From Candidatus Parcubacteria bacterium (GTDB lineage: Bacteria > Patescibacteriota > Minisyncoccia > UBA6257 > JAGOQP01), in assembly GCA_025999395.1 (NCBI GenBank), contig AP024682.1, forward strand, positions 2,105 through 66,104: DNA of 64,000 nucleotides, written 5' to 3'. Under the pieces are notes generated by a model that ran no database searches, was not told the DNA's origin, and saw only the letters and a program-made list of their open reading frames with translations. Numbering within the stretch: position 1 is the first letter of the stretch; each line of letters starts with the position of its first letter. Of this stretch, positions 1-57,470 are shown in pieces. Both the position numbers and the translations under genes were made by a program.

Positions 1-371
1 CACTCTTGATAAAGATAGTCTTCCTTTTTCACTTTATCTTTCTTTTCTCTTTTCCCCTTAATAGTCACCGACTCCGGAGAAATAGAAATATCCAAATCCT
101 CCGGCTCAACGCCTGCTACTGCCGATTCAATAACCAAATGTCGATCATCTTCATAAACATCAATTGTTAACTGCCCTTCAACTTCTTCTTCTAAATCGCC
201 CTCAGAAAAATCGCTCACTAATTGAACCTCTTTCTCGCTTTCTTCCACTTCCAAGGAAGGAGAAAAACTATTTTCTTCTTCAAAAAGATCTTTTTCTTGA
301 GACTCTTCTTGAGATTCTTCTGAAATTACTCCAGCTAATTTTTCGAAAAATTCTTTATTGTTGTCAGCCAT
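1..371 (-). CDS. Hsp20/alpha-crystallin family small heat-shock protein (3' end truncated by window edge)
   Basis: Own translation of the minus strand from the ATG at 371-369: MADNNKEFFEKLAGVISEESQEE...GQLTIDVYEDDRHLVIESAVAGVEPEDLDISISPESVTIKGKREKK. This matches the alpha-crystallin domain pattern. Absent from the ORF track because it runs off the window. Confidence 0.6.
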   Translation of the reverse strand, partial: MADNNKEFFEKLAGVISEESQEESQEKDLFEEENSFSPSLEVEESEKEVQLVSDFSEGDLEEEVEGQLTIDVYEDDRHLVIESAVAGVEPEDLDISISPESVTIKGKREKKDKVKKEDYLYQE

Positions 372-5286: not shown

Positions 5287-5471
5287 ATCAATAGAGCCTT
5301 TGTTTTTACTTTGGGTAATTTTCTGCAAAGTGAAGGCAAAGCAGAGAAACTTAAAAGTCAAGATTAATTCGGGCTATTAGTACTCCTCGGCTAAAATCCT
5401 TACGGATCTTACACCTGGAGCCTATCAAGGTCGTCATCTTCGACCGCCCTAGGATGCCTAATCTTGGGGTG

Positions 5472-5504
<33 letters not shown>

Positions 5505-5630
5505 CTTCCGAACATAGCTACCCGGCGCTTCAGCTGGTGCCAAAGCCGGTAGACCAGAGGTTCGTTCAGCCCGGTCCTCTCGTACTAGGGCCAACTCCCC
5601 TCAAGCATCCAACGCCTGCAGCAGATAGAG

Positions 5631-5664
<34 letters not shown>

Positions 5665-6353
5665 GCGTACCACTTTAATTGGCGAACAGCCAAACGCTTG
5701 GGAGCTTCTCCACCCCCGCGCTGTGGTGAGCCGACATCGAGGTGCCGAGCGAGGTCGTCGATGTGGACTCTCGGACCTCACCAGCCTGTTATCCCCAGGG
5801 TAGCTTTTATCCGTTGTCTCCGGCCTTCCTATAAGGAGTCATCTTGTCTTGAATAAAACAAGATGACATTGCCGTCGGGTCACTAAGTTCTGCTTTCGCA
5901 TCGGCGCGACTTGTCAGTCTTGCCGTCAAGCCGGCTTGTGCCTTTACACGTCCAGCCCGATTTCCATCCGGGCTAAGCCGACCTTATAAACTCCTCCGTT
6001 ACTCTTTAGGAGGACAACGCCCCATTGAAACTGCCCGCCAGACACTGTCCCCTGACGTTTTTGCCGTCAAGGTTAGACTCTAAAACTTGGAAGGTGGGTG
6101 TTTCATTGGCGGCTCCATCCACCCCGAAAGGTGGACTTCAAAGCCTCCCCACTACGCTACGCATCCAAGCTCTAAAGCCAATATCAAGCTGCAGTAAAGC
6201 TCCTGGGGTCTTTTCGTCCCGCTGCAGGTACCCCGCGTCTTCACGGGAATCGCATTTTCACCGAGCTCATCCTCGAGACAGTTCTCCAGTCGTTACGCCA
6301 TTCGTGCGCTCCGGAACTTACCCGGAAAGGAATTGCGCTACCTTAGAACGGTT

Positions 6354-7107
6354 CACTTGTGTTATCGCTCCATTACCTTGGAGCTTCTCACGGTCGCCCG
6401 TGAGGTCGGACTATATCATTCCCACATATTGCGGGATCCGGCGTATAGTCTCTGAGGATTCAATTTACGAATCGAGATAGTCGGTTAATGAATATTTTCT
6501 TGTTCGCCCTTTTCCTTCGTTTAATTTTTCACGAAGAAGGAGAATTTTTTTAAACCCTTCTTCTGTTAAATGCTCTCCGCGAGCCATAAGCTTAACTATT
6601 TTTTTAAAGATAGAGAAATTTCTCACTTTCAATCGGGAACGGAATGAAAACTTCTCAAAGAAAGGAATTACTCTTTCGTAAAGCATTTTGTAATTCCTAA
6701 CCTCAAAGTAAGCTACTCCATCCTTTCTTTTCCTTAATCTTCCGGTTCCTAATGATTTTTTCAGAAGGATTAGATTGCTTATGTCTCGCTGAGAGACATT
6801 AAAACTTGGTTCGACTTTCCATTTTAGTTGATAATCAGAAACTTTTTTAAGAGAAACATTGAAGCTTCCCTCTCCATCAACAAAGCCTGCCAGATACCAA
6901 CCCACTTCCTGAGGAACTTTCTTTAGCCATTGATTTGAAGTTGTCTGATTCATAGTTGTGGTTACTTGTGATTCGTAAATTGTCTTTCCTGCGGATTGTC
7001 TCTCCACAAAGATTTTTACTGACACGATGACTAGTCGTGCCGAGTACTTTGCTTCAACGAGACTTTCCCGCATATAGCCGGATTTTATAACTACAGACCG
7101 TTATCCT
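6354..7107 (-). mobile_element. group I intron inserted in 23S rRNA domain IV (near E. coli positions ~1917-1931), encoding a LAGLIDADG homing endonuclease
   Basis: Exon sequence ...GGTAACTAT | AACCGTTCTAAGGTAGCG rejoins to the conserved 23S ...AACTATAACGGTCCTAAGGTAGCG. 5' exon ends in U and the intron ends in G (omega G at 6354). The internal ORF carries LAGFVDGEGSF. Confidence 0.7.
6465..7073 (-). CDS. LAGLIDADG homing endonuclease (intron-encoded; likely true start at internal Met ~6953)
   Basis: Single LAGLIDADG motif WYLAGFVDGEGSFNVSL. Size ~160 aa from the internal Met MNQTTSNQ. Located inside 23S rRNA. Confidence 0.75.
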   Translation of the reverse strand: MRESLVEAKYSARLVIVSVKIFVERQSAGKTIYESQVTTTMNQTTSNQWLKKVPQEVGWYLAGFVDGEGSFNVSLKKVSDYQLKWKVEPSFNVSQRDISNLILLKKSLGTGRLRKRKDGVAYFEVRNYKMLYERVIPFFEKFSFRSRLKVRNFSIFKKIVKLMARGEHLTEEGFKKILLLREKLNEGKGRTRKYSLTDYLDS

Positions 7108-8677
7108 ATAGTTACCGCTGACATTGACGAGGGCTTCGGCCGCTCAGCCGTAAGACAACTTGCGTTCTCTTACGACCGGCAGCTTTAACCTTCTCGCATC
7201 GGTCAGGCGTCACCCCCTATACATCCTCTTACGAGTTCGCAGGGAGCTGTGTTTTTAGTAAACAGTCGCCAGAGAGACTTTAGCTGCGGCCTTGCTTACG
7301 CAAGGCAGGCCTTATCCCGAAGTTACGGCCGCTTTTTTGCCGAGTTCCTTGAGGATGACTCACTCGTTCCCCTTAGGCTTCTCGCCTCACCCACCAGTGT
7401 CGGTTTACGGTACGGGCCTAAGTTCTTTATCCTTAGAAGTTTTTCTCGGAAGCTGGCTCGAGGGACTTCCCTTTGATAAACGCCGGGTCGTCTCTACTCT
7501 GGGACTCGCCATTGAAGGCAGTGTTCCGGATTTCCCAAGAACACGTCCTCGATCAAGAACGCCAAACCATTAAGGCGCTCCCTCTACTCAACTTCGTCAC
7601 TCCATCGGGAAGAACTTAGGGGGCCGGAATATTAACCGGCTGTCCATCAGCTTCGGCTTTCGCCATTGCCTTAGGTCCCGCCTAACCCTTCGCTGATTTC
7701 CATTGCGAAGGAAACCTTGGATTTTCGGGGGTCCGAGTTCGCATCGGACTTGTGGTTACTCATGCCAACATTTTCTCTTCCAAACGCTCCACTCCGCCTC
7801 GCGGCTAGAGCTTCATCGCTGTTTGGAATGCTCTCCTACCCCCATCTCATCAAAGGCAAGAACGCTGACTTACGCCGACCTAACGCTAAACCACACAGAA
7901 AAATAAAAAATTTGTTCCGCGTTAGTCTGCGTTAAGCCTGTGTCTTTCCGCGATCTTGTCTCTGACAAGATGAGTCGTGTCTTCGGTAGTGTGCTTAGCC
8001 CCGGTAAATTTTCGGCGCAGCCTGCCATCTAGTAGTGAGTTGTTACACACTCTTTAAAGGATGGCTACCTCTAAGCCAACCTCCTACCTGTCTCTGGCAG
8101 ACCACTACCTTTCACACTTAGCACACATTTAGGGACCTTAGACGACGATCTGGGCTGTTCCCCTCGCGACTATGGAGCTTAGCCCCCACAGTCTAACTGC
8201 CCGAGCTTTACGTTAGAGTATTCGGAGTTTGACTGAGAAGCCGAGCTTTCGCCCTTTACTTCTCAACCAGTGGCTCTACCCCTCTAACGTTTTTCCCGGA
8301 CGCCAGCCCGAAAGCTGTTTCGGAGAGAACCAGCTATTACCAGGTTCGATTAGCTTTTCACTCCTTACCTCAGGTCATCCGAAGGTTTTGCACAACCCAC
8401 CGGTTCGGGCCTCCTCTTGTCTTTCGACAAGATTCACCCTGCCCAAGGTAAGCTCACCTGGCTTCGGGTCTTATGCGCACCGCGTCATCTTGCTAAAAGC
8501 AAGATGGGCGCCCTTTTAAGACTCGCTTTCGCTCTGCCTCCGCTCCGTAGAGCTTAGACACGCGATGCACATAAACTCGTTGGCTCATTCTTCAATAGGC
8601 ACACCGTCACCCTTGCGGGCTCCGGTTCCTTGTAGGTGTGTGGTTTCAGGTTCTATTTCACCGGCCTCACCGGCCTG

Positions 8678-8714
<37 letters not shown>

Positions 8715-9390
8715 ATCACTAAACGTATTTAGCCTTTCCTGATAGTTCAGGAAGATTCCCTCAGGGCGTTCGTTCCCCGAGGTACTCAAGGATGTATACT
8801 AGGAAGTTCTTTTGTTTTCGCCTACGGGACTTTCACCCTCTTTGGTTCTGCTTCCCAGCAGATTCGGCTAACAAAAGAATTTGTAACTTCCCCTTATCGC
8901 CACAAGCGGATTGATGCCAAGCTTTAGCACCAATCCGCGAGAGCGACAGCGTATACACCTTACAACCCCTTCTTTGTACTAAAAAGTACAAAGAAGGTTT
9001 GGGCTCTTCCCTTTTCGCTCGCCGCTACTGGGGGAATAACGATTGTTCTCTTTTCCTCCGCTTACTGAGATGTTTCACTTCAGCGGGTTTGCCTCTGCCA
9101 ACTTGAGATTGGCAGATAACTGCGGTTTACGCAGTTGGGTTGCCCCATTCGGAGATCCCCGGATCACAGGTTGCTACGCACCTCCCCGAGGCTTATCGCA
9201 GCTACGCCACGTCCTTCATCGCCGTTTAGTGTCGAGGCATCCACCACACACCCTTAACCTAATCTTGACTTTTCAAGTCCTCTGCTTTTACCTTCACTTC
9301 GCAGAAAACTACCTTTATACCTGCGCTCTTCAATTTTCAAGGTTCTAAGATACTTAGTAGATTCTTTACCCTTGGGCAGATCTCCTGAAA

Positions 9391-49667: not shown

Positions 49668-49740
49668 AAAGAAAATTAAACTTACAAAATTAAGAATGTT
49701 TTGAAATAACTTTTAAGTAATAATTTGGGATGAAAAAATT

Positions 49741-51009
49741 AAAAATTGAATAGGTAGATTAGACGATCTCCTGAAGACGACGATAGACGTGATCTACAAA
49801 AGTAGAAATTGAATAGGTAGATTAGACCTCTTTTAGAGAAAATGGACGATTGGATCTACAAAAGTAGAAATTGAATAGGTAGATTAGACACAAAAATGTC
49901 AAGCCCCTACCTGTGGAATCTACAAAAGTAGAAATTGAATAGGTAGATTAGACACTACGTTCAGAGTTAATCCCAGAGTATCTACAAAAGTAGAAATTGA
50001 ATAGGTAGATTAGACAGTTTAAAATCCGGGGCTTGGGTATATATCTACAAAAGTAGAAATTGAATAGGTAGATTAGACTGTATAGAACATCAACACCACA
50101 ATATCTACAAAAGTAGAAATTGAATAGGTAGATTAGACTGGAAATGGTTTGCTTTATATTCAAATCTACAAAAGTAGAAATTGAATAGGTAGATTAGACT
50201 GTTAAAATTCTTAAAAAGTATCTATCGATCTACAAAAGTAGAAATTGAATAGGTAGATTAGACAAATAGTAAATACAGTTATAGAAAAAATCTACAAAAG
50301 TAGAAATTGAATAGGTAGATTAGACAATACATACCAACATTATGGAGCAAAATCTACAAAAGTAGAAATTGAATAGGTAGATTAGACTATCGCTTAGATC
50401 AAAGCATAAATTATCTACAAAAGTAGAAATTGAATAGGTAGATTAGACTAAGCATTAGCCCATACATTGAACAAAATCTACAAAAGTAGAAATTGAATAG
50501 GTAGATTAGACTAAGCATAGCATAACATTGAACAATATCTACAAAAGTAGAAATTGAATAGGTAGATTAGACTGAATTAGCAAGAATACAACCGATGGAT
50601 CTACAAAAGTAGAAATTGAATAGGTAGATTAGACATTGAAATGTCCCCGACCTTTATATTATCTACAAAAGTAGAAATTGAATAGGTAGATTAGACAAAT
50701 ATACATTCCTAATCCTGCCTTTATCTACAAAAGTAGAAATTGAATAGGTAGATTAGACACGAAGTAAAAAGAAATACCGATTCATCTACAAAAGTAGAAA
50801 TTGAATAGGTAGATTAGACTGTATCGCTAAATTCGCAACCCTATCTTATCTACAAAAGTAGAAATTGAATAGGTAGATTAGACATTGGAATAATTATGTG
50901 ATTAAAGTAAAATCTACAAAAGTAGAAATTGAATAGGTAGATTAGACTATTTATGCAATTCTAAACAGAATTAATCTACAAAAGTAGAAATTGAATAGGT
51001 AGATTAGAC
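49741..51009 (-). CRISPR. CRISPR array, type V-A (Cas12a) repeat: 20 full 36-bp repeats + 1 degenerate terminal repeat (49741-49764); 20 spacers of 24-28 nt
   Basis: Plus-strand repeat ATCTACAAAAGTAGAAATTGAATAGGTAGATTAGAC. crRNA sense (minus strand) GTCTAATCTACCTATTCAATTTCTACTTTTGTAGAT ends in the Cas12a handle AAUUUCUACU-UUU-GUAGAU. Full repeats start at 49792, 49854, 49918, 49980, 50043, 50103, 50164, 50228, 50290, 50352, 50413, 50476, 50537, 50599, 50661, 50723, 50784, 50848, 50912, 50974. Confidence 0.95.
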
Positions 51010-51220
51010 AGCGGAAATGGCTTAAAATCAATATAATTTTGGCCAAGCCAAAAATTAATAATTTGCAAAAACCTCATAAAATAAAGCCATTTCCGCCATA
51101 AAAATTCATAAAGACTGAGGTTTTGCAATTTTATGTACATTTTAAAATATAGTAATCTACCCACAACAACTTCTACCTTTGTTATTAATTAAACTAATGT
51201 AAAACTGTCAAAGAACTGGA
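51010..51220 (-). promoter_or_regulatory. CRISPR leader (AT-rich, ~210 bp between cas2 stop and first repeat) with nested inverted repeats
   Basis: 13-bp IR GCGGAAATGGCTT (51011-51023) / AAGCCATTTCCGC (51086-51098). IR TTGCAAAAACCTCA (51056-69) / TGAGGTTTTGCAA (51115-27). Palindrome TTGGCCAA. Inverted degenerate repeat copy at 51153-51183. Confidence 0.5.
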
Positions 51221-51502
51221 CTAACCAAAAACAACCACTTCCTTTTCTTCATTTTCTGAATAACCGTATCTTCTGATTTTCTTTTGGCATGACTCACACA
51301 AACTTAAAATAATCACACTATCAGATCCACCAAATTTCTTGCTATAATTTGATTCTATCTCAATTAAAATATTATTCAAGACTCTTTGACTATTTTTAAT
51401 CTCATAAACAGAATACTGGATTTTCCTACCAAACTTCTTTAAAAATTTAGAAAATTTATTTCTTTGCCTGTCGTCTTGAATATCGTAAGAAACTAAAATC
51501 AT
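51221..51502 (-). CDS. cas2: CRISPR-associated endoribonuclease Cas2
   Basis: 93 aa. MILVSYDIQDDRQRNKFSKFLKKFGRKIQYSVYE, the canonical Cas2 N-terminus (VSYDI...R..V...L...G.R.Q.SV.E). Confidence 0.85.
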   Translation of the reverse strand: MILVSYDIQDDRQRNKFSKFLKKFGRKIQYSVYEIKNSQRVLNNILIEIESNYSKKFGGSDSVIILSLCESCQKKIRRYGYSENEEKEVVVFG

Positions 51503-51521
51503 ATTCTCTTCAATAAAACTA

Positions 51522-52477
51522 CTAACGCGATACTTTAAAATAAGGAAAATTATACTTTTCGCTGTCCATTACAAAATGATAAAAATCTCTTATATATTTA
51601 TAAATTTCTTCTTTATTTTTCATTATTGTTTCTAAAAAAACCGAAGCGTATTTCGTAGATTTGCTGTAAAGCATATAAACTTTGCTATCTTTTGCTTTAA
51701 AATCTTTTTCATTAAAAATTTTTAAGTTAAAAATTTTTAGCACTTCTCGATCAACAATGCATCTAAACGGCTCAATAATATCGCAAGAAAGGGATTTCCT
51801 TTGAAAAAATAACTTGTGATAAAAACCCTTATAAGTATCGAAGCCAAAAAGATTCAGCAAAGCATCTATAAAATTAAAAAGTAAGGTATAGCCCATATCT
51901 AATAAAAAATTGACTGCGTCAGGCTTAACTCTGGGCATTCGTGCAAACCAACCAATTTCTTTAAAATAAGCAGAAAAAAATTCTTTTGAGAAATTTCCCT
52001 CAATTCCTCTTAAGGTCTCTAAATTTTCAGCTTGATTAATTAAATTTCTGATTTCTTGTTTTGTTCTACTAATTAATTTCCCTCTTGATTTAAGCAATCT
52101 AAGTTGATTCTCAATTTTATTTAAAACAAGACTTTTAGAAAATTTTAAATCAAAATCGTCTGAAAAAAAGTATTGTCTCATTTTCAATAAATAATTGCCA
52201 CATTTTTCGCGCCAATTGAGGCGTAACAACGGAAACTATTATCTAGCAAAAAGAAGGAGATACCATATTTTAAGCCTTTTTTAATTAACTCAGAGGTGAT
52301 AGAAATGTTACCAATAATAAAAACAGAAAATATTCGGTGACAAGATACTCTATTTTCTACTCGTTCATCTTTTTCAAAAACAATATTGTCGTTGTAAATT
52401 TTAATCTTATTTAAAACACCGCTTTCGGTCTTAATAAAAAGAATCTGCTTTTGTCTAAAATCCGGAAGAGTAATCAT
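51522..52477 (-). CDS. cas1: CRISPR-associated integrase Cas1, split into two frames (97 aa + 235 aa; shift near 52200-52215)
   Basis: N-terminal ORF MITLPDFRQKQILFI...GNISITSELIKKGLKYGISFFLLDNSFRCYASIG (Cas1 beta-sandwich domain). Second ORF ...NYLLKMRQYFFSDDFDLKFSKSLVLNKIENQLRLLKSRG...ARMPRVKPDAVNFLLDMGYTLLFN (Cas1 alpha-helical catalytic domain pattern). Combined ~330 aa. Confidence 0.75.
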
Positions 52478-53043
52478 TTTACCAATTTAAGGTTGAATAA
52501 ATAGAATTTTGACCACCTTGGGCAAGAATGGTTAATTAACTGGAGAGGATTAAAATTCCTTATGCGTTTAAGAATATCCTCAAATATGTTTTTATCCTTA
52601 TTAGAAGGAAGGGGTATAAAGTAATTTTTATTATCGCTCATAGATCTAATAATTATTTTTTTAACTTCATAACCCATTTCCAAAAGACAGAAATATTGAG
52701 CATAAAGCTGATATTTATAACCGTCATAAATGCATTTTACTTTCGTTTTTCTTTCAATTAGAGTTTTCTCTTCTTTGTCATAAATATCAATCTTGCCCAT
52801 TATTCTATACTTGTCGCTATAAACTTCTTTTCCAACAAGAAAACGATTGGAAGTAGAATAATTTTTTTCTTCAATGGATTGATGTTTTATTCTCCCTTTT
52901 CTTTGCGGTTCATCATGAAACAAATCATCAGAAAAATCTTCATACATCATATGAAGATATAAAGTTTTTGGACAATAAAGAAAATCGTTAATTTTAGAAA
53001 TTGGGATATAGGAGTACATTATCTTTGAACAAATTTGTCCCAC
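52474..53043 (-). CDS. cas4: CRISPR-associated Cas4 (PD-(D/E)xK RecB-like nuclease)
   Basis: 189 aa. N-terminal YCPKTLYL, motif II/III GKIDIYDKEEKTLIERKT (D...ExK), QxxxY motif YKYQLYAQYF. Only one C-terminal Cys (HSCPRW). Start overlaps the cas12a stop; stop overlaps the cas1 start by 4 nt. Confidence 0.7.
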   Translation of the reverse strand: MGQICSKIMYSYIPISKINDFLYCPKTLYLHMMYEDFSDDLFHDEPQRKGRIKHQSIEEKNYSTSNRFLVGKEVYSDKYRIMGKIDIYDKEEKTLIERKTKVKCIYDGYKYQLYAQYFCLLEMGYEVKKIIIRSMSDNKNYFIPLPSNKDKNIFEDILKRIRNFNPLQLINHSCPRWSKFYLFNLKLVK

Positions 53044-56000
53044 TCTTCCTTTGAAATGCTTAAATCCGGTTTATTAGGATTATTTTTGATTTTTTCTAAA
53101 ATAATTAATCCTTTTCTGGCAATGTTATAAGCGCCAACACCATCAGCATCAAATTTCTCCTCTGGCTTATATTCTTTTAATCTATCTTTAAATTCAGCCA
53201 AATTTTCAGAAGCAATTTCTTCTCTGGCGTTATCTTTCACGACTTTCCCATCTTTTTCTATACCAATTTCTCTCAAACCAAAAGTTGTGAAAAATGGTTT
53301 TACTGGCGAAGCAAAAAAGTCAATGCCATAATCAATTTTTTTAAGTTTCTTTTCCGTCTTATCAATTTCTACTGATAAAGAATAAGTATTTCTCACTTGC
53401 AAAACAATATTAAAGAGAAAAATAAATCTCTCGTAAAAGTTTTTTAATCTTCCATCAAACTCCTTTTTTTCGACTAATAATTTATCGTTTTCTGCTATCC
53501 TCTTTTTAAGATTAGAGAGGATGTCGTTACTTTGTGCCTCAAATCCGTATTTTTCCAATAAATCTCTAAACTCCTCGTTTAAATTAATCTTTTTATAACT
53601 CCAATAACTACTTTTTGATTCTTTCCATCTTATGACTCGAGGAACCTTTGTCCAAATAGTCCAATCCTTGCTAAGAGGTTTTTTCTTTTTCTCGGCAAAA
53701 TCAACTTGATTGTATTCAATAAAATAACTTTCTTCTGTATCATCCCAGCCAAATTTTTTTAATTTATTTATTAATTCTTTTATCTTCTCTTGCGAAGCAG
53801 AATTGCTAATATAAATATTTTTTCTAAAACCAGTTAAGGGATCGGTTTGAGAAGTGTATTCCGCGCTCGTGTAAAATAGAACTCCGGTTTGTTTGGCTTT
53901 CTCAATATCTTTAAAAGAAGTAAAGGGCGCGGCTAACTGATAACCGTTTAAAACACCACCCGGAGAAAAAACATCACGATTATCTTTAAAAATCAGATAA
54001 TTCAACTTATCTATCAATGCTTTTTCAAATTGTTGATAAACTGTTCTTTCAGAAATACCATTTCTAATTTGTTTAAATCTTCTACTTAAATCTTCTAAAA
54101 CAACAATCGCATTATGGTTTATAATCAAATCGCAAATCTTTCTTACTACATAAGAAATATATCCTTGTTTTAAATCTTTAATTTTAGCCACTGGTTCCCA
54201 AGATTGTCTTTCTAATTGTCGTTGCTTTTCTCTTTCAACAAGTTTGTCAAAATAATTAACATTATTTACCTTGTTTAAATTTATCTTGTTTAAGCTTCCA
54301 TAGTCTAAAATTTCTTGATTCTGGTTAATCACGCAATAATAAAGAAGGTTCTTCTCGCCTCGGTCAATACCGATAATATTGATTTTACCAAGATTATCTT
54401 TGATAAAATGATTTAATTTACTGGAAAAATTTTTAAACGAAGAAGATGGTTTATCAGCGTTTAGAGTAATAGGACAGTGAAATAAATATGTAGGTTTTAA
54501 ATATCTTTGATAATGATAAACAGGTTTATCTTCTCTCTTTGCCTGCTTTGCGCCATTTAATCTTTCTAGAATAACCGGCTTTCTCATTTCTTCATTCATT
54601 TCTAAAACATCTCTATAAAATATTTCTGCTTTCCCGTTTAATCTAATTAATGGATATTTTATTTCTTCTAAATTTTCCTTGCTAAAAATATGTTCCCAGT
54701 AAAGAGTGTGAATATTTTTCCTGCTATCTGGTTTTTTGTATTTATAAAAATCTTTATTAGAAACTTCAAATAAATAAAGATTGCCATCATTTAGTTGTTT
54801 TTCAATATAACTCGCCTTTATTTTATCAAAATTTATCTTGTACCCCTGAAGAGCAATATGATCGGTAAAATCTTTAAAGGTTTGATATTCTTCTGATGGA
54901 AGTAATTTTAAATCAAATTTTTTCCAATAAATAAGAGCGCATTTTCTAAAATAATTAATAATTTTAACCAAATCCTCTCTATTTACTTTTTCCCTTTTAT
55001 ATGTACCTTTTTCTTTTATCCTTTTTATTTCATCTGGCCAATGTTTATTTTTTTCTTCTAATTTAGTAAATCGTTTTACAGTATTGTCTGGCATTAATAC
55101 CAAATTAAAAATATCCTTTGCCGGATCAGCTATTTGCCAATAATTCATTTTTAAATAGAAATCCTCATTATCATTAGCTAAAATTTCATTTTTTAAATTA
55201 TTTTTTCTTTCCTTTTCTTTCTGGTTATCTTTTTCAGTAATTTGATAATCAAACAATTTAGAATTCTCTTTTCTCAAAACGCCAAGATAATATTTATTGT
55301 TTTTTATAAAAATCAACCCCAAATTATCTTTTTCTTTACTAACATCCCAACCATCTAAAAGACTGCGGCTTTCAAAATTTAATTTTATCTTATTCTCATC
55401 CGAAGGTTTTTTAGTTATAAAATTTCTGATTCCATTATAATATTTGTTAAATTCAAAATTATTAAAGTATTCATCAACTAGACGATAAAATTCAGTGCTT
55501 AAACCGCTAGGGACATCTTTTCTATCTTTATCTGATAAATTAAAATACCGCATCATTCGGTTAATGCGCAAAGCAGCATCGCAGTAATTTTTAATCGTTT
55601 TAATCTGCTCTTTCTCCGCTGAATAAAATTTAATTTTCTCGGCTTCTTTTTCTAATTTATCCGTATAACCCCAAAATATCTGAATAGGTTCTCCATTTTT
55701 ATCTTTTTTAATTTCGCCTTTTTCAACCTTATCTTTAAAAAGCGACTCAAATTCAAACCGCCAAATTTTAAGAAAATTCTCCCAGTTATTACTCTTTTCT
55801 TCTTTTTCTAATGGCGCTTCTGGATTTACTTCGTTTTTGTAAAATCTCGATTTAAAAATATCGCCTTCTAAACTTAAAATCGCATTTTTAAATTCGTCTA
55901 GAGAGGTAAATTTTTTAAGTTTTATTTTCTCTTCTGATTTAACGCCCGTAAGTTTCATTAAAAATTCTTCCGGATTGGAAAACCATTTATTAACAATTTC

Positions 56001-57269
56001 GTTTATAACATTCTTCTTTAAATAAATACTTTGATAATCATTTTCAAAAATACCACTGGTAAAATCCTCAATAAATTTTTTAGCGCCTTCAATTTCTTCT
56101 TTTTCATCGCCGTAAATTTTTATTTTATTTCTCTTTATAAACTCTTGGAATCTATCAATAAAAACCTCTTCTTCTGTTTTTTCATCTTTCGCTTCTATAA
56201 AAACTCTTTCCTTTTTAACTTCTCCAAGAATTTGTTTTTCTAAATTTAGAAAAAGCGGTAAATCTTTTTTATCTATTTTATTTTTATCGCGGTATTCTTT
56301 TGTTTTTCTGTTAATTTCGCCGATTATTTTGTTATATTTATCAATTCCTTCTTGAATTAAACAATCATAATAGTAGTTAATTTCAAAAACTTTCTCTTCT
56401 TCTTTAGTTAGCCCAACATCCTTAGCTTTGTTTTTATATTTTTCTTCAAAAAGAGATTTATTTTCTAAGAATCTTTCAAAATTGCTAACAATACGGGTAG
56501 CAACCGCTGTGCTCGTGCCGTCATCTTTATATAAATTTTCTCTTGTCTGCTGGAATTTAGATAGATAAGTGGTAAATTTGTCGAAACTTTCAAAAATATA
56601 AATTTTCTTTCCCGGATTTAATTCGTCATTTATAAATAAACTTGGATAGCCCTCTTTTCTAAATTCCTCATCTTTCTCTGCTGGAAACTTATATTTTAAG
56701 ATATTTATAATTCCGGCGGCGGTCAAAAAATTAACCCCTTTTTGTTTTAAATCAGCACTACTAAACTTTATCTTCTCTTTCTTACCACCCCTTTCAATTT
56801 CTTTATCTTGATATTCTTTCTTCCATTTCTCCGCTCTTTTATCAAATAATTCTCTTATTTCTTTATAAAGATTTTCTCTTTGACCCTCGATTTCTTTTTC
56901 AAGTTTAGAAATTTCGTCCCAATTCTTTTTATTTTTATCTTTAACCTCTTTGTTTTTCTTTTTTAGAGAGACAATTTTCTCTTTATTTGACTCAAAAATT
57001 TTCGCAAACTTTTCAAAATCAATATTCCTAATTCCATTTTCAACAGATAATGATTCTTTAATAAAATCTTGATGGAGTTTATCAAAATAAAATTTCGCTT
57101 GATTATAACTTTTATCTATATTTAAATCTTTCTTAAAAATGTCATTTTCCTCCAGCCACTTCTTCGTCTCGCCAACCGGTTTTAATTCAAACCTTAATGT
57201 CTTTTGTAATGAATATTTTTTAGTAAAAACCGACCAAATGCTTTGAGTTTGATTATTTTTATTCTCCAT
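53019..57269 (-). CDS. cas12a: Cas12a (Cpf1), type V-A CRISPR effector, 1416 aa
   Basis: N-terminus KYSLQKTLRFELKPVGETKKWLEEN (Cas12a WED-I signature KYSLSKTLRFELIPQGKT). PI/WED region GNLYLFEVSNKDF...NIHTLYWEHIFSKENL...LNGKAEIFYR. RuvC-I IGIDRGEKNLLYYCVI, RuvC-II NAIVVLEDLSRRFKQIR, RuvC-III FDADGVGAYNIARKGL. Confidence 0.92.
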   Translation of the reverse strand: MENKNNQTQSIWSVFTKKYSLQKTLRFELKPVGETKKWLEENDIFKKDLNIDKSYNQAKFYFDKLHQDFIKESLSVENGIRNIDFEKFAKIFESNKEKIVSLKKKNKEVKDKNKKNWDEISKLEKEIEGQRENLYKEIRELFDKRAEKWKKEYQDKEIERGGKKEKIKFSSADLKQKGVNFLTAAGIINILKYKFPAEKDEEFRKEGYPSLFINDELNPGKKIYIFESFDKFTTYLSKFQQTRENLYKDDGTSTAVATRIVSNFERFLENKSLFEEKYKNKAKDVGLTKEEEKVFEINYYYDCLIQEGIDKYNKIIGEINRKTKEYRDKNKIDKKDLPLFLNLEKQILGEVKKERVFIEAKDEKTEEEVFIDRFQEFIKRNKIKIYGDEKEEIEGAKKFIEDFTSGIFENDYQSIYLKKNVINEIVNKWFSNPEEFLMKLTGVKSEEKIKLKKFTSLDEFKNAILSLEGDIFKSRFYKNEVNPEAPLEKEEKSNNWENFLKIWRFEFESLFKDKVEKGEIKKDKNGEPIQIFWGYTDKLEKEAEKIKFYSAEKEQIKTIKNYCDAALRINRMMRYFNLSDKDRKDVPSGLSTEFYRLVDEYFNNFEFNKYYNGIRNFITKKPSDENKIKLNFESRSLLDGWDVSKEKDNLGLIFIKNNKYYLGVLRKENSKLFDYQITEKDNQKEKERKNNLKNEILANDNEDFYLKMNYWQIADPAKDIFNLVLMPDNTVKRFTKLEEKNKHWPDEIKRIKEKGTYKREKVNREDLVKIINYFRKCALIYWKKFDLKLLPSEEYQTFKDFTDHIALQGYKINFDKIKASYIEKQLNDGNLYLFEVSNKDFYKYKKPDSRKNIHTLYWEHIFSKENLEEIKYPLIRLNGKAEIFYRDVLEMNEEMRKPVILERLNGAKQAKREDKPVYHYQRYLKPTYLFHCPITLNADKPSSSFKNFSSKLNHFIKDNLGKINIIGIDRGEKNLLYYCVINQNQEILDYGSLNKINLNKVNNVNYFDKLVEREKQRQLERQSWEPVAKIKDLKQGYISYVVRKICDLIINHNAIVVLEDLSRRFKQIRNGISERTVYQQFEKALIDKLNYLIFKDNRDVFSPGGVLNGYQLAAPFTSFKDIEKAKQTGVLFYTSAEYTSQTDPLTGFRKNIYISNSASQEKIKELINKLKKFGWDDTEESYFIEYNQVDFAEKKKKPLSKDWTIWTKVPRVIRWKESKSSYWSYKKINLNEEFRDLLEKYGFEAQSNDILSNLKKRIAENDKLLVEKKEFDGRLKNFYERFIFLFNIVLQVRNTYSLSVEIDKTEKKLKKIDYGIDFFASPVKPFFTTFGLREIGIEKDGKVVKDNAREEIASENLAEFKDRLKEYKPEEKFDADGVGAYNIARKGLIILEKIKNNPNKPDLSISKEEWDKFVQR

Positions 57270-57335
57270 ATTTTTAAATTTATTTAATTATTTTTTAACC
57301 TTTGATTTTTAATTATTCCCCCAAAAATCAAAAAG

Positions 57336-57435
57336 GGACGACGGTTGTCGCCCAATAGATATGCTTACCAAACGGTTAAGCGCTACTGGAACCGTCGCCC
57401 CTCTTTGATGAGAAGGCGGCATATCTATTGGCGAC
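57336..57435. repeat. GC-rich ~100-bp imperfect palindrome in the cas12a upstream region (nested hairpins)
   Basis: Outer IR GTCGCCCAATAGATATGC (57347-64) / GCATATCTATTGGCGAC (57419-35), 17/18 match. Inner IR ACGGTT (57372-77) / AACCGT (57390-95). GTCGCCC occurs twice. Composition ~55% GC within an AT-rich intergenic region. Confidence 0.5.
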
Positions 57436-57440
57436 ACTCA

Positions 57441-57470
57441 TTAGTATAACAAAAAATAAAAATTATGCAA
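57441..57470 (-). promoter_or_regulatory. candidate sigma70-like promoter for cas12a (minus strand TTGCAT-N16-TATACT)
   Basis: Reverse complement of 57443-57470 reads TTGCATAATTTTTATTTTTTGTTATACT. It would place the palindromic element in the cas12a 5' UTR. Confidence 0.3.

Follow-up and report, generated by a model that had tools for sequence, protein, structure and literature searches.

Cas12a structures are available for FnCas12a from Francisella novicida (1300 aa; PDB IDs: 5NG6, 5NFV, and 6I1K), for LbCas12a and AsCas12a (PDB chains of ~1228 and ~1307 aa, respectively), for AmCas12a, whose cryo-electron microscopy chain comprises 1365 residues, and for ReChb, a reconstructed Cas12a of 1261 aa (PDB IDs: 8QWD/E/F). 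A further described relative is KKT48220.1 from Parcubacteria group bacterium GW2011_GWC2_44_17 (1352 aa), which we take to be the protein named PbCpf1 in the first panel of Cpf1 orthologs and which falls in the 90% cluster of one member of the clade described below. Here, we examined a 64,000-nucleotide stretch of DNA from Candidatus Parcubacteria bacterium (contig AP024682.1, positions 2,105 to 66,104; hereafter, the window), which carries a CRISPR-cas locus encoding a Cas12a of 1416 aa. An earlier reading of the sequence alone (hereafter, the original prediction) had drawn attention to the length of this protein and had proposed that it reflected novel insertions.

The comparisons described below indicate that the open reading frame (ORF) very probably encodes a functional type V-A effector belonging to a long-form Cas12a clade found mainly in Patescibacteria/candidate phyla radiation (CPR) bacteria, and that its length consists of structured elaborations typical of this lineage. 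Such an effector would bind a CRISPR RNA (crRNA) with the canonical AAUUUCUACUUUUGUAGAU handle, recognize a protospacer adjacent motif (PAM) through the WED and PI domains, form the R-loop within the REC lobe, and cut DNA at the single RuvC site with the help of the Nuc domain. The 1416 residues would be the sum of a longer, K/E-rich helical hairpin in REC1, extra REC1 elements, a WED-II helix, a β-hairpin at the PI entry, and additions to Nuc; the WED-II helix and the PI-entry β-hairpin would come with a WED-PI cassette that we refer to as type A, and three β-hairpin additions would enlarge the distal Nuc sheet around a conserved arginine.

Functional residues and location of the additional residues

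Pfam searches with the whole protein detected REC1, NUC (55.4 bits, aa 1143–1311), and RuvC_1 (226.7 bits) and returned no HNH match, and a scan of the middle block alone found PF22222 (Cpf1 PI-like) at aa 730–810. Searches with phmmer against all PDB chains retrieved Cas12a only, from ReChb (E = 6e-132) and FnCas12a (2e-117) down to LbCas12a (1e-83). The original prediction of a Cas12a with intact RuvC-I, RuvC-II, and RuvC-III was borne out, as all of the motifs that it quoted were present and D969, E1059, and D1376 were invariant. The Nuc arginine R1293 aligned to Fn R1218, and the bridge-helix (BH) residue W1024 was conserved. The protein contained a single split RuvC domain with the D/E/D residues, and the Nuc domain between RuvC-II and RuvC-III was enlarged by ~62 aa. 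The bilobed REC1-REC2/WED-PI-RuvC-BH-Nuc architecture was recognized from the Pfam REC1 and PI-like matches, the match of both AlphaFold2 halves to Cas12a, and W1024. From its sequence, we infer that the protein would possess the enzymatic activity of Cas12a.

The additional residues were located in a MAFFT alignment of the query, 118 database relatives (designated by P numbers), and FnCas12a, the sequence of which was verified against PDB chains (1–1300 to 1–1300, 2895 bits); AsCas12a and LbCas12a were compared by phmmer coordinate ranges only. Relative to FnCas12a, the query was longer by 116 aa net, with insertions of at least 4 aa summing to 200 aa and deletions to 92 aa (region lengths are given in Table 1). 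More than half of the net difference came from distal Nuc (+62 aa), and the rest was mostly from N-terminal REC1 (+47 aa) and the WED-II loop. The distal Nuc insertions comprised 16, 15, and 35 aa, and phmmer placed 92 query residues between matched flanks of distal Nuc opposite 36 ReChb residues; likewise, ReChb showed an 18-aa gap opposite query aa 679–696 in WED-II. The multiple alignment that the original prediction had called for showed that the extra length was discrete, residing in REC1, WED-II, and Nuc rather than scattered over tiny loops, with agreement between MAFFT and phmmer. The suspected insertions around the Nuc domain were also found, as three insertions in its distal part.

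Structural prediction suggested that these segments are folded. The protein was modeled with AlphaFold2 as two halves that overlapped (aa 1–620 and 600–1416), each from a 79-sequence alignment, and the models had mean predicted local distance difference test scores (pLDDT) of 89.4 and 88.1, respectively, and a predicted template modeling score of 0.84 each. The K/E-rich run KKKNKEVKDKNKKNWDEISKLEKEIEGQRENLYKEI at aa 103–138 lay in a region (aa 85–165) with 47% K+E, as compared with 26% in the whole protein; this region was predicted as two long helices (aa 85–108 and 114–154; pLDDT 83–97) followed by a small β-hairpin (aa 157–166). The K/E richness of the REC lobe that had been noted previously was thus present, but the part described as low-complexity was predicted as two helices, with no disordered linker. 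Thermophily was considered as a reason for the K/E richness, in that the name prefix of the MAG recurs in papers on hot springs, but the GC content of the rRNA exons was only ~52–56%, and we make no claim. The segment at aa 189–217 was modeled as two short helices and strands, the WED-II insertion as a helix (aa 683–696; pLDDT 92–96), and the PI entry as a β-hairpin (aa 723–725/731–733; pLDDT ~95). The Nuc insertions yielded strands at aa 1269–1271/1274–1276, 1299–1303/1308–1313, and 1331–1339/1342–1353 and a helix at aa 1358–1363 (pLDDT 75–97), and the added strands surrounded the strand bearing R1293. The inserted segments are therefore predicted to be ordered secondary structure, and they would represent peripheral decorations rather than new activities. 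All significant Foldseek matches were Cas12a; the NUC-lobe half gave template modeling (TM) scores of 0.65–0.74, and the REC half fitted binary complexes best with a TM score of ~0.5, as expected from the mobility of the REC lobe.

The same expansions recurred among relatives. The nearest 47 relatives (1270–1399 aa) had the REC1 expansions in common, and an enlarged distal Nuc (~105–136 aa) was found in most of the nearest 68 (P0001–P0068), as compared with ~57–92 aa in most others. The REC1 segment corresponding to aa 90–125 comprised 25–44 aa in the clade (27–44 aa in P0002–P0047) versus 11–23 aa, and that corresponding to aa 155–220 comprised 53–71 aa versus 34–52 aa. The query, with 125 aa in distal Nuc and 36 and 66 aa in these REC1 segments, followed the long-form pattern, as did P0002–P0047. 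In P0002–P0023, the segment at aa 189–217 and the three Nuc insertions had occupancies of 0.93–1.00 and 24–58% identity to the query, and the first two Nuc insertions had occupancies of 0.87–0.99 over the clade. The segment at aa 189–217 was present in 100% of P0002–P0047 (identity 48–58%) and in 74% of more distant relatives, and is therefore better read as a deletion in FnCas12a. Differences from the closest relative (P0002; 1393 aa, 73% identity) were loop-sized, at 4–11 aa per region. The insertions are thus features of the clade and are not peculiar to the query protein; the original prediction had considered them potentially novel, yet each was common to tens of relatives of 1337–1399 aa, including PbCpf1, and the Nuc and REC1 expansions recurred in ~45–65 of the nearest relatives.

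When GTDB was scanned with each species represented by a single genome, 426 Cas12a-encoding stretches were obtained, and lengths were taken from the best 80 loci. The 67 complete Cas12a genes among them had a median of 1281 aa; 17 encoded at least 1350 aa and three at least 1400 aa, with a maximum of 1506 aa. This longest Cas12a was encoded by a Bdellovibrionales metagenome-assembled genome (MAG; locus L024, OZ241840.1). Other long lineages attained ~1400 aa by enlargement elsewhere, namely in PI (+45–60 aa; P0062, P0068, P0095, and P0105), proximal Nuc (+25–45 aa; P0090, P0100, P0106, and P0108), or REC2 (+45–55 aa; P0079 and P0100). The query is indeed longer than FnCas12a, AsCas12a, and LbCas12a, but the comparison set from which it had been called unusually long was too narrow in view of this distribution, and the range of ~1200–1310 aa that had been given for characterized orthologs was incomplete, as PbCpf1 and AmCas12a exceed it. 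Considering the relatives, the other long lineages, and AmCas12a, the query falls among the longest proteins of a continuous length distribution and is not an outlier.

The WED-II/PI/WED-III block

Sliding-window identity to the query varied sharply along the protein. For P0003 and P0004, identity was 63–87% over most of aa 1–630 and 930–1416, with dips to 43–58% within the K/E-rich part of REC1 and at aa 361–420, but only 18–48% over aa 631–930; for P0005, P0008, P0016, and P0018, this contrast was reversed. Outside the block, partitioned identity matrices resolved three groups of backbones (P0001, P0002, P0003, and P0004; P0005, P0009, and P0012; P0016, P0018, and P0023), with identities of 62–74%; P0003 was 71% identical to the query there. 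Within the block, two types were distinguished: type A (P0001, P0002, P0005, P0008, P0016, and P0018; mutual identity 52–76%) and type B (P0003, P0004, P0009, P0012, P0015, and P0023, together with the distant P0049 and P0060; 47–68% identical). Identity between type A and type B blocks was only 31–45%, and both types occurred in every backbone group. Nine triplets were tested by bootstrapping over columns (1000 replicates), and the nearest neighbor switched between partitions in 96–100% of the replicates. A cumulative-difference scan placed the boundaries at aa ~637–680 and aa ~951, such that the block begins within WED-II and ends shortly before RuvC-I. Block-internal insertions (aa 677–696, 725–733, and 896–906) and a lysine-less PI entry motif belonged to type A, and carriers of the two types had the same crRNA handle. 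This pattern is most simply read as the result of recombination that repeatedly exchanged a WED-PI cassette between related Cas12a genes.

The PI entry of type A deviated from FnCas12a at Fn K671, which we take from established structural work to be the PI lysine inserting into the PAM duplex. This lysine aligned to N722 by MAFFT or to L723 by phmmer, the local sequence DIFNLVL contained neither K nor R, and Fn K677 aligned to L737. The motif QIADxxKDIxNLVLMPDGxVxRFTK was found in nine of the 119 relatives and was strongly conserved among its carriers. HMMER, run exhaustively with aa 660–790, retrieved only 20 representatives at E ≤1e-3; several of these were 1273–1480 aa long and had related QIAxxxxDIxNL entries.

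It could be argued from these features that the additional residues are the mark of a functionally distinct Cas12a, whose type A cassette would confer a non-TTTV PAM and/or resistance to inhibitors directed at the PAM-reading lysine and would be exchanged between backbones under phage pressure. The replacement of Fn K671, the motif conserved in nine carriers with related entries in further Cas12a clusters, and the incongruence of the block with the rest of the protein (bootstrap support of 0.96–1.00) point in this direction, and PAM diversification between close Cas12a orthologs, possibly arising from phage escape or anti-CRISPRs, has been discussed (PMC7261169). However, the WED PAM lysine Fn K613 was retained as K645 in the alignment, the helical PI domain still matched the Pfam PI-like family, the nearby basic residues K730, R731, and K734 could stand in for the lost lysine, and the cassette accounts for only ~19 of the 116 additional residues.

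Nor did viral, metagenome, and local searches provide protospacers in favor of a distinct PAM. Window spacers 3, 16, and 18 had no match in viral contigs, and spacers 6 and 17 had none in metagenome contigs. All array spacers were compared with the window at up to four mismatches without detecting a protospacer, and no match was obtained with two degenerate patterns derived from spacer variants shared between samples or with three spacers from the array of locus L087, a type A relative. Comparison of all spacers with all fetched loci gave only one low-complexity match with three mismatches, which was judged to be due to chance. Taken together, we consider a functionally distinct Cas12a possible but on balance rather unlikely. 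We also regard as doubtful the proposal, drawn from the same comparisons, that the clade exchanges the cassette at aa ~640–950 in such a manner that the PAM of type A would differ from that of type B relatives, which are ~70% identical elsewhere, and that immunity to lysine-targeting anti-CRISPRs might follow. Our preferred reading remains an effector with lineage-typical elaborations, within which nothing beyond the mosaic of cassettes and the missing PAM lysine merits follow-up.

Integrity of the gene and of the CRISPR-cas locus

Read on the minus strand, the cas12a interval was occupied by one uninterrupted ORF (1416 codons), and the plus-strand translation was riddled with stops; the ORF reported in the original prediction, which did not state the strand, was therefore real. 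The window assembly nevertheless differs from others by at least two single-nucleotide indels (one at 52202 in cas1, the other at 52514 in cas4), and the question arises of whether the length could be an artefact of a wrongly called start, of fusion by read-through, or of an erroneous frameshift from long-read assembly. A further assembly (L085, SRR32929653) had an extra A at the equivalent of window position 56900 (cas12a codon 124), which divided the gene into ORFs of 135 and 1294 aa; this A falls in the A-rich, lysine-encoding REC1 stretch, where homopolymer runs are indel-prone. Against an artefact, phmmer aligned the N-terminal sequence MENKNNQTQSIWSVFTKKYSLQKTLRFELKPVGET (…SIWSVFTKKYSLQKTLRFELKPVGET), starting at query residue 9–11, with residue 3–4 onward of the solved FnCas12a and ReChb chains, such that the query N-terminus was only ~8 aa longer than theirs, and the ORF list left no room for upstream extension. 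The start is accordingly correct, and the possibility of a mis-assigned start codon raised in the original prediction was settled. Homology to Cas12a was unbroken from residue 9 to 1415, and relatives of 1377–1399 aa matched the query end to end at 99–100% coverage.

Independent records gave the same length. BCX15829.1, annotated as a hypothetical protein from a Candidatus Parcubacteria MAG contig of 561,860 bp, was identical to the query, and MCX7615899.1, from a different assembly and named type V CRISPR-associated protein Cas12a/Cpf1 by NCBI, differed by one substitution. In that independent assembly, GCA_026419535.1 (locus L081), the same 1416-aa ORF was present, with a single C-to-T difference over the entire cas12a gene in a base-by-base comparison; the cas12a sequence is thus essentially unchanged between samples. 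The cas12a gene is not an assembly artefact. We ruled out a start-codon or assembly artefact on the basis of the N-terminal alignment, the end-to-end relatives, and the independent assembly, and give an artefactual length virtually no credence.

The gene order cas12a-cas4-cas1-cas2-leader-array on one strand constitutes a complete type V-A locus. Cas4 comprised 179 aa in other assemblies, and an extra G at 52514 in the window changed its last ~12 codons. The split of cas1 into two ORFs was due to one A missing from an A6 run at 52202, as compared with L081 and L085, and cas1 was intact (318 aa) in five other assemblies; both indels look like assembly errors or strain-specific changes. An identical Cas2 protein was encoded on 18 contigs from several samples. 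The repeat ended in a AAUUUCUAC-loop-GUAGAU handle, and the 3′ handle AAUUUCUACUUUUGUAGAU had the loop UUUU, which has been reported for the crRNAs of Pb/Pe/LiCas12a (PMC7093978). When the array was compared with those of L081 (8494–9787) and L083 (1548–2403), spacers at the trailer end, such as TCCACAGGTAGGGGCTTGACATTTTTGT, were common to the arrays and the leader ends differed, which suggested polarized, ongoing spacer acquisition. Point-variant spacers (window 8/9; window 17 with L081 15/17; window 19 with L081 14) implied that one and the same protospacer was sampled several times as the targets diverged.

These observations also bear on whether the locus is decaying, with the long Cas12a an inactive relic or a protein repurposed, for example, for a nuclease-independent role. 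Such decay might be read from the split cas1 and altered cas4 3′ end, from the RNase histidine that could not be aligned (see below), and from a locus GC content (27–28%) below that of the flanks (35–38%), which would suggest acquired DNA. We nevertheless consider it highly improbable, because the catalytic residues for DNA cleavage were all intact, 20 repeats were perfect, cas1 was intact in the five other assemblies of the locus, the arrays differed at the leader end between samples, and cas12a was essentially invariant across samples.

Several observations weigh against a fully functional type V-A effector. In the window assembly, cas1 is frameshifted, albeit intact elsewhere. The canonical PAM-reading lysine appears to be missing at the PI entry, and no protospacer was found with the spacers searched, so that the PAM was not deduced. 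Among the residues of the pre-crRNA RNase, Fn K852 and Fn K869 aligned to R912 and H919, respectively. Fn H843 fell in a gapped, poorly aligned stretch of WED-III (aa ~890–920; window 54510–54600, minus strand), in which H919 was the only nearby histidine; it thus appears to have no alignable counterpart, leaving canonical pre-crRNA self-processing a putative activity of the query. Some type B relatives had a GIHKK motif instead.

The CRISPR-cas locus (window 50000–57000) had a GC content of 27–31%, as compared with 33–39% in the flanks (cas12a, 28.0%; window mean, 35.5%), which is consistent with horizontal acquisition. A hairpin 5′ of cas12a (window 57325–57445, minus strand; −48.3 kcal/mol, z = −5.55) ended in a U-run, and a segment upstream of it, GUGUCGCCAAUAGAUAUGC, could pair alternatively with part of the stem, by which the hairpin may act as a terminator/antiterminator; it matched no Rfam family. 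Elsewhere in the window, the 23S rRNA (5357–9267, minus strand) spanned 3911 nt, as compared with the 2925-nt model, and its insert of ~1 kb with low GC content contained a 202-aa ORF (6465–7073, minus strand) with a LAGFVDGEGSF (LAGLIDADG-type) motif. This insert resembles an rRNA intron that encodes a homing endonuclease, a combination that is common in CPR bacteria.

Table 1. Features of the CRISPR-cas locus and regions of the 1416-aa Cas12a (query) relative to FnCas12a (Fn). Positions refer to the window.
Feature	Position	Strand	Query/Fn length (aa)	Remarks
cas12a ORF, 1416 aa + stop	53019..57269	-		ORF list, translation, Pfam, phmmer to PDB
cas4	52474..53043	-		Pfam Cas_Cas4; likely ATG at 53019, overlapping the cas12a stop
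cas1	51522..52477	-		Pfam Cas_Cas1 on both pieces, ORFs of 97 and 235 aa
cas2, 93 aa	51221..51502	-		Pfam CRISPR_Cas2
Leader, 211 nt	51010-51220
CRISPR array	49735..51009	-		36-nt repeats GTCTAATCTACCTATTCAATTTCTACTTTTGTAGAT, 20 perfect and one, terminal, degenerate; 20 spacers (24-28 nt)
N-terminus			10/2
REC1, 90-125			36/16
REC1, 155-220			66/39
REC1, 221-345			125/163
REC2			255/241
WED-II			100/82
PI			100/103
WED-III			145/141
RuvC			195/190
Proximal Nuc			110/108
Distal Nuc			125/63
RuvC-III			41/43
REC1 K/E-rich helical hairpin, aa 85-154	56808..57017	-		Holds a 16-aa insertion (106-121) relative to Fn; AlphaFold2 helices
REC1 segment, aa 189-217 (FPAEKDEEFRKEGYPSLFINDELNPGKK...)	56619..56705	-		29-aa block absent from FnCas12a (MAFFT)
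WED-II insertion, aa 677-696 (ITEKDNQKEKERKNNLKNEI)	55182..55241	-		20 aa relative to Fn (MAFFT); type A carriers only
PI entry, aa 716-745 (QIADPAKDIFNLVLMPDNTVKRFTKLEEKNKHW)	55035..55124	-		Replaces the canonical '..KMLPKVFFS..' lysine loop
WED-II (distal)/PI/WED-III block, aa ~640-950, type A cassette	54420..55352	-		Identity windows, bootstrap, breakpoints
RuvC-I motif IGIDRGE, aa 966-972 (D969)	54354..54374	-		Aligned to Fn D917; D in 119/119 relatives
RuvC-II motif VVLEDL, aa 1056-1061 (E1059)	54087..54104	-		Aligned to Fn E1006; invariant
Distal Nuc expansion, aa 1257-1369	53163..53501	-		Insertions 1257-1272, 1298-1312, and 1335-1369 flanking R1293
RuvC-III motif DADGVGAYNIARKG, aa 1374-1387 (D1376)	53109..53150	-		Aligned to Fn D1255; invariant in relatives

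Significance and comparison with known systems

Although uncharacterized, the query is an ordinary representative of the long-form Cas12a clade of Patescibacteria. CPR bacteria commonly carry long Cas12a genes, and a one-residue variant of the query already bears a Cas12a annotation at NCBI. What the protein offers is a map of the structured additions that the Cas12a fold tolerates, namely at the tip of the REC1 hairpin, in the WED-II loop, at the PI entry, and in the distal Nuc sheet; in other lineages of Cas12a, the hot spots are different ones (PI, proximal Nuc, and REC2). Such a map should be useful for engineering fusions or for minimizing Cas12a. Near-identical backbones with two very different WED-PI cassettes would constitute a natural experiment on PAM specificity and a guide to chimera design, and an RNase histidine that cannot be aligned in this sub-lineage raises a question about crRNA maturation.

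PbCpf1 belongs to the same long-form clade, and its 90% cluster representative was 47% identical over 99% of the query. Like the query, it is expanded at the REC1 hairpin (42 aa versus 16 aa in FnCas12a) and in REC1b (62 versus 39 aa); it also carries part of the Nuc expansion (92 versus 63 aa), a QIADASKD PI entry, and the same UUUU-loop crRNA handle (PMC7093978). It differs from the query in that most of the third Nuc insertion (aa 1335–1369), the WED-II helix, and the NLVLMPDG hairpin are absent, and identity between the WED-PI blocks of the two proteins is only 41%. The PbCas12a of PMC6362571, which may come from a different organism, was left out of this comparison.

FnCas12a, ~31% identical to the query, matches it in domain order and fold (NUC-lobe TM scores of 0.68–0.73), in the D/E/D catalytic residues, the Nuc arginine, and the tryptophan of the bridge helix, and in the 36-nt repeat architecture with the UCUAC...GUAGA stem. 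Relative to FnCas12a, the query is longer by 62 aa in distal Nuc, by 47 aa in N-terminal REC1, and by 18–20 aa in WED-II, and shorter by 38 aa in mid REC1; Fn K671 is replaced by N722 and Fn K677 by L737, and Fn H843 has no aligned query residue. ReChb was the best match to the query among PDB chains in sequence and also in structure (E = 4e-54; TM score of 0.72), albeit 155 aa shorter, without the WED-II insertion and ~56 aa of distal Nuc.

Cas9 orthologs, such as Nme1Cas9, Nme2Cas9, and Nme3Cas9 of Neisseria, combine close backbones with sharply divergent PAM-reading modules. This exchange of the PAM-interacting domain (PID) follows the same pattern as the WED-PI block of the query clade. 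Cas9 is, however, a different effector family, and the block described here also includes WED-III with the crRNA-processing site. If the proposed exchange is true, Cas12a would have a natural system for swapping PAM modules, similar to that by which Cas9 orthologs exchange the PID.

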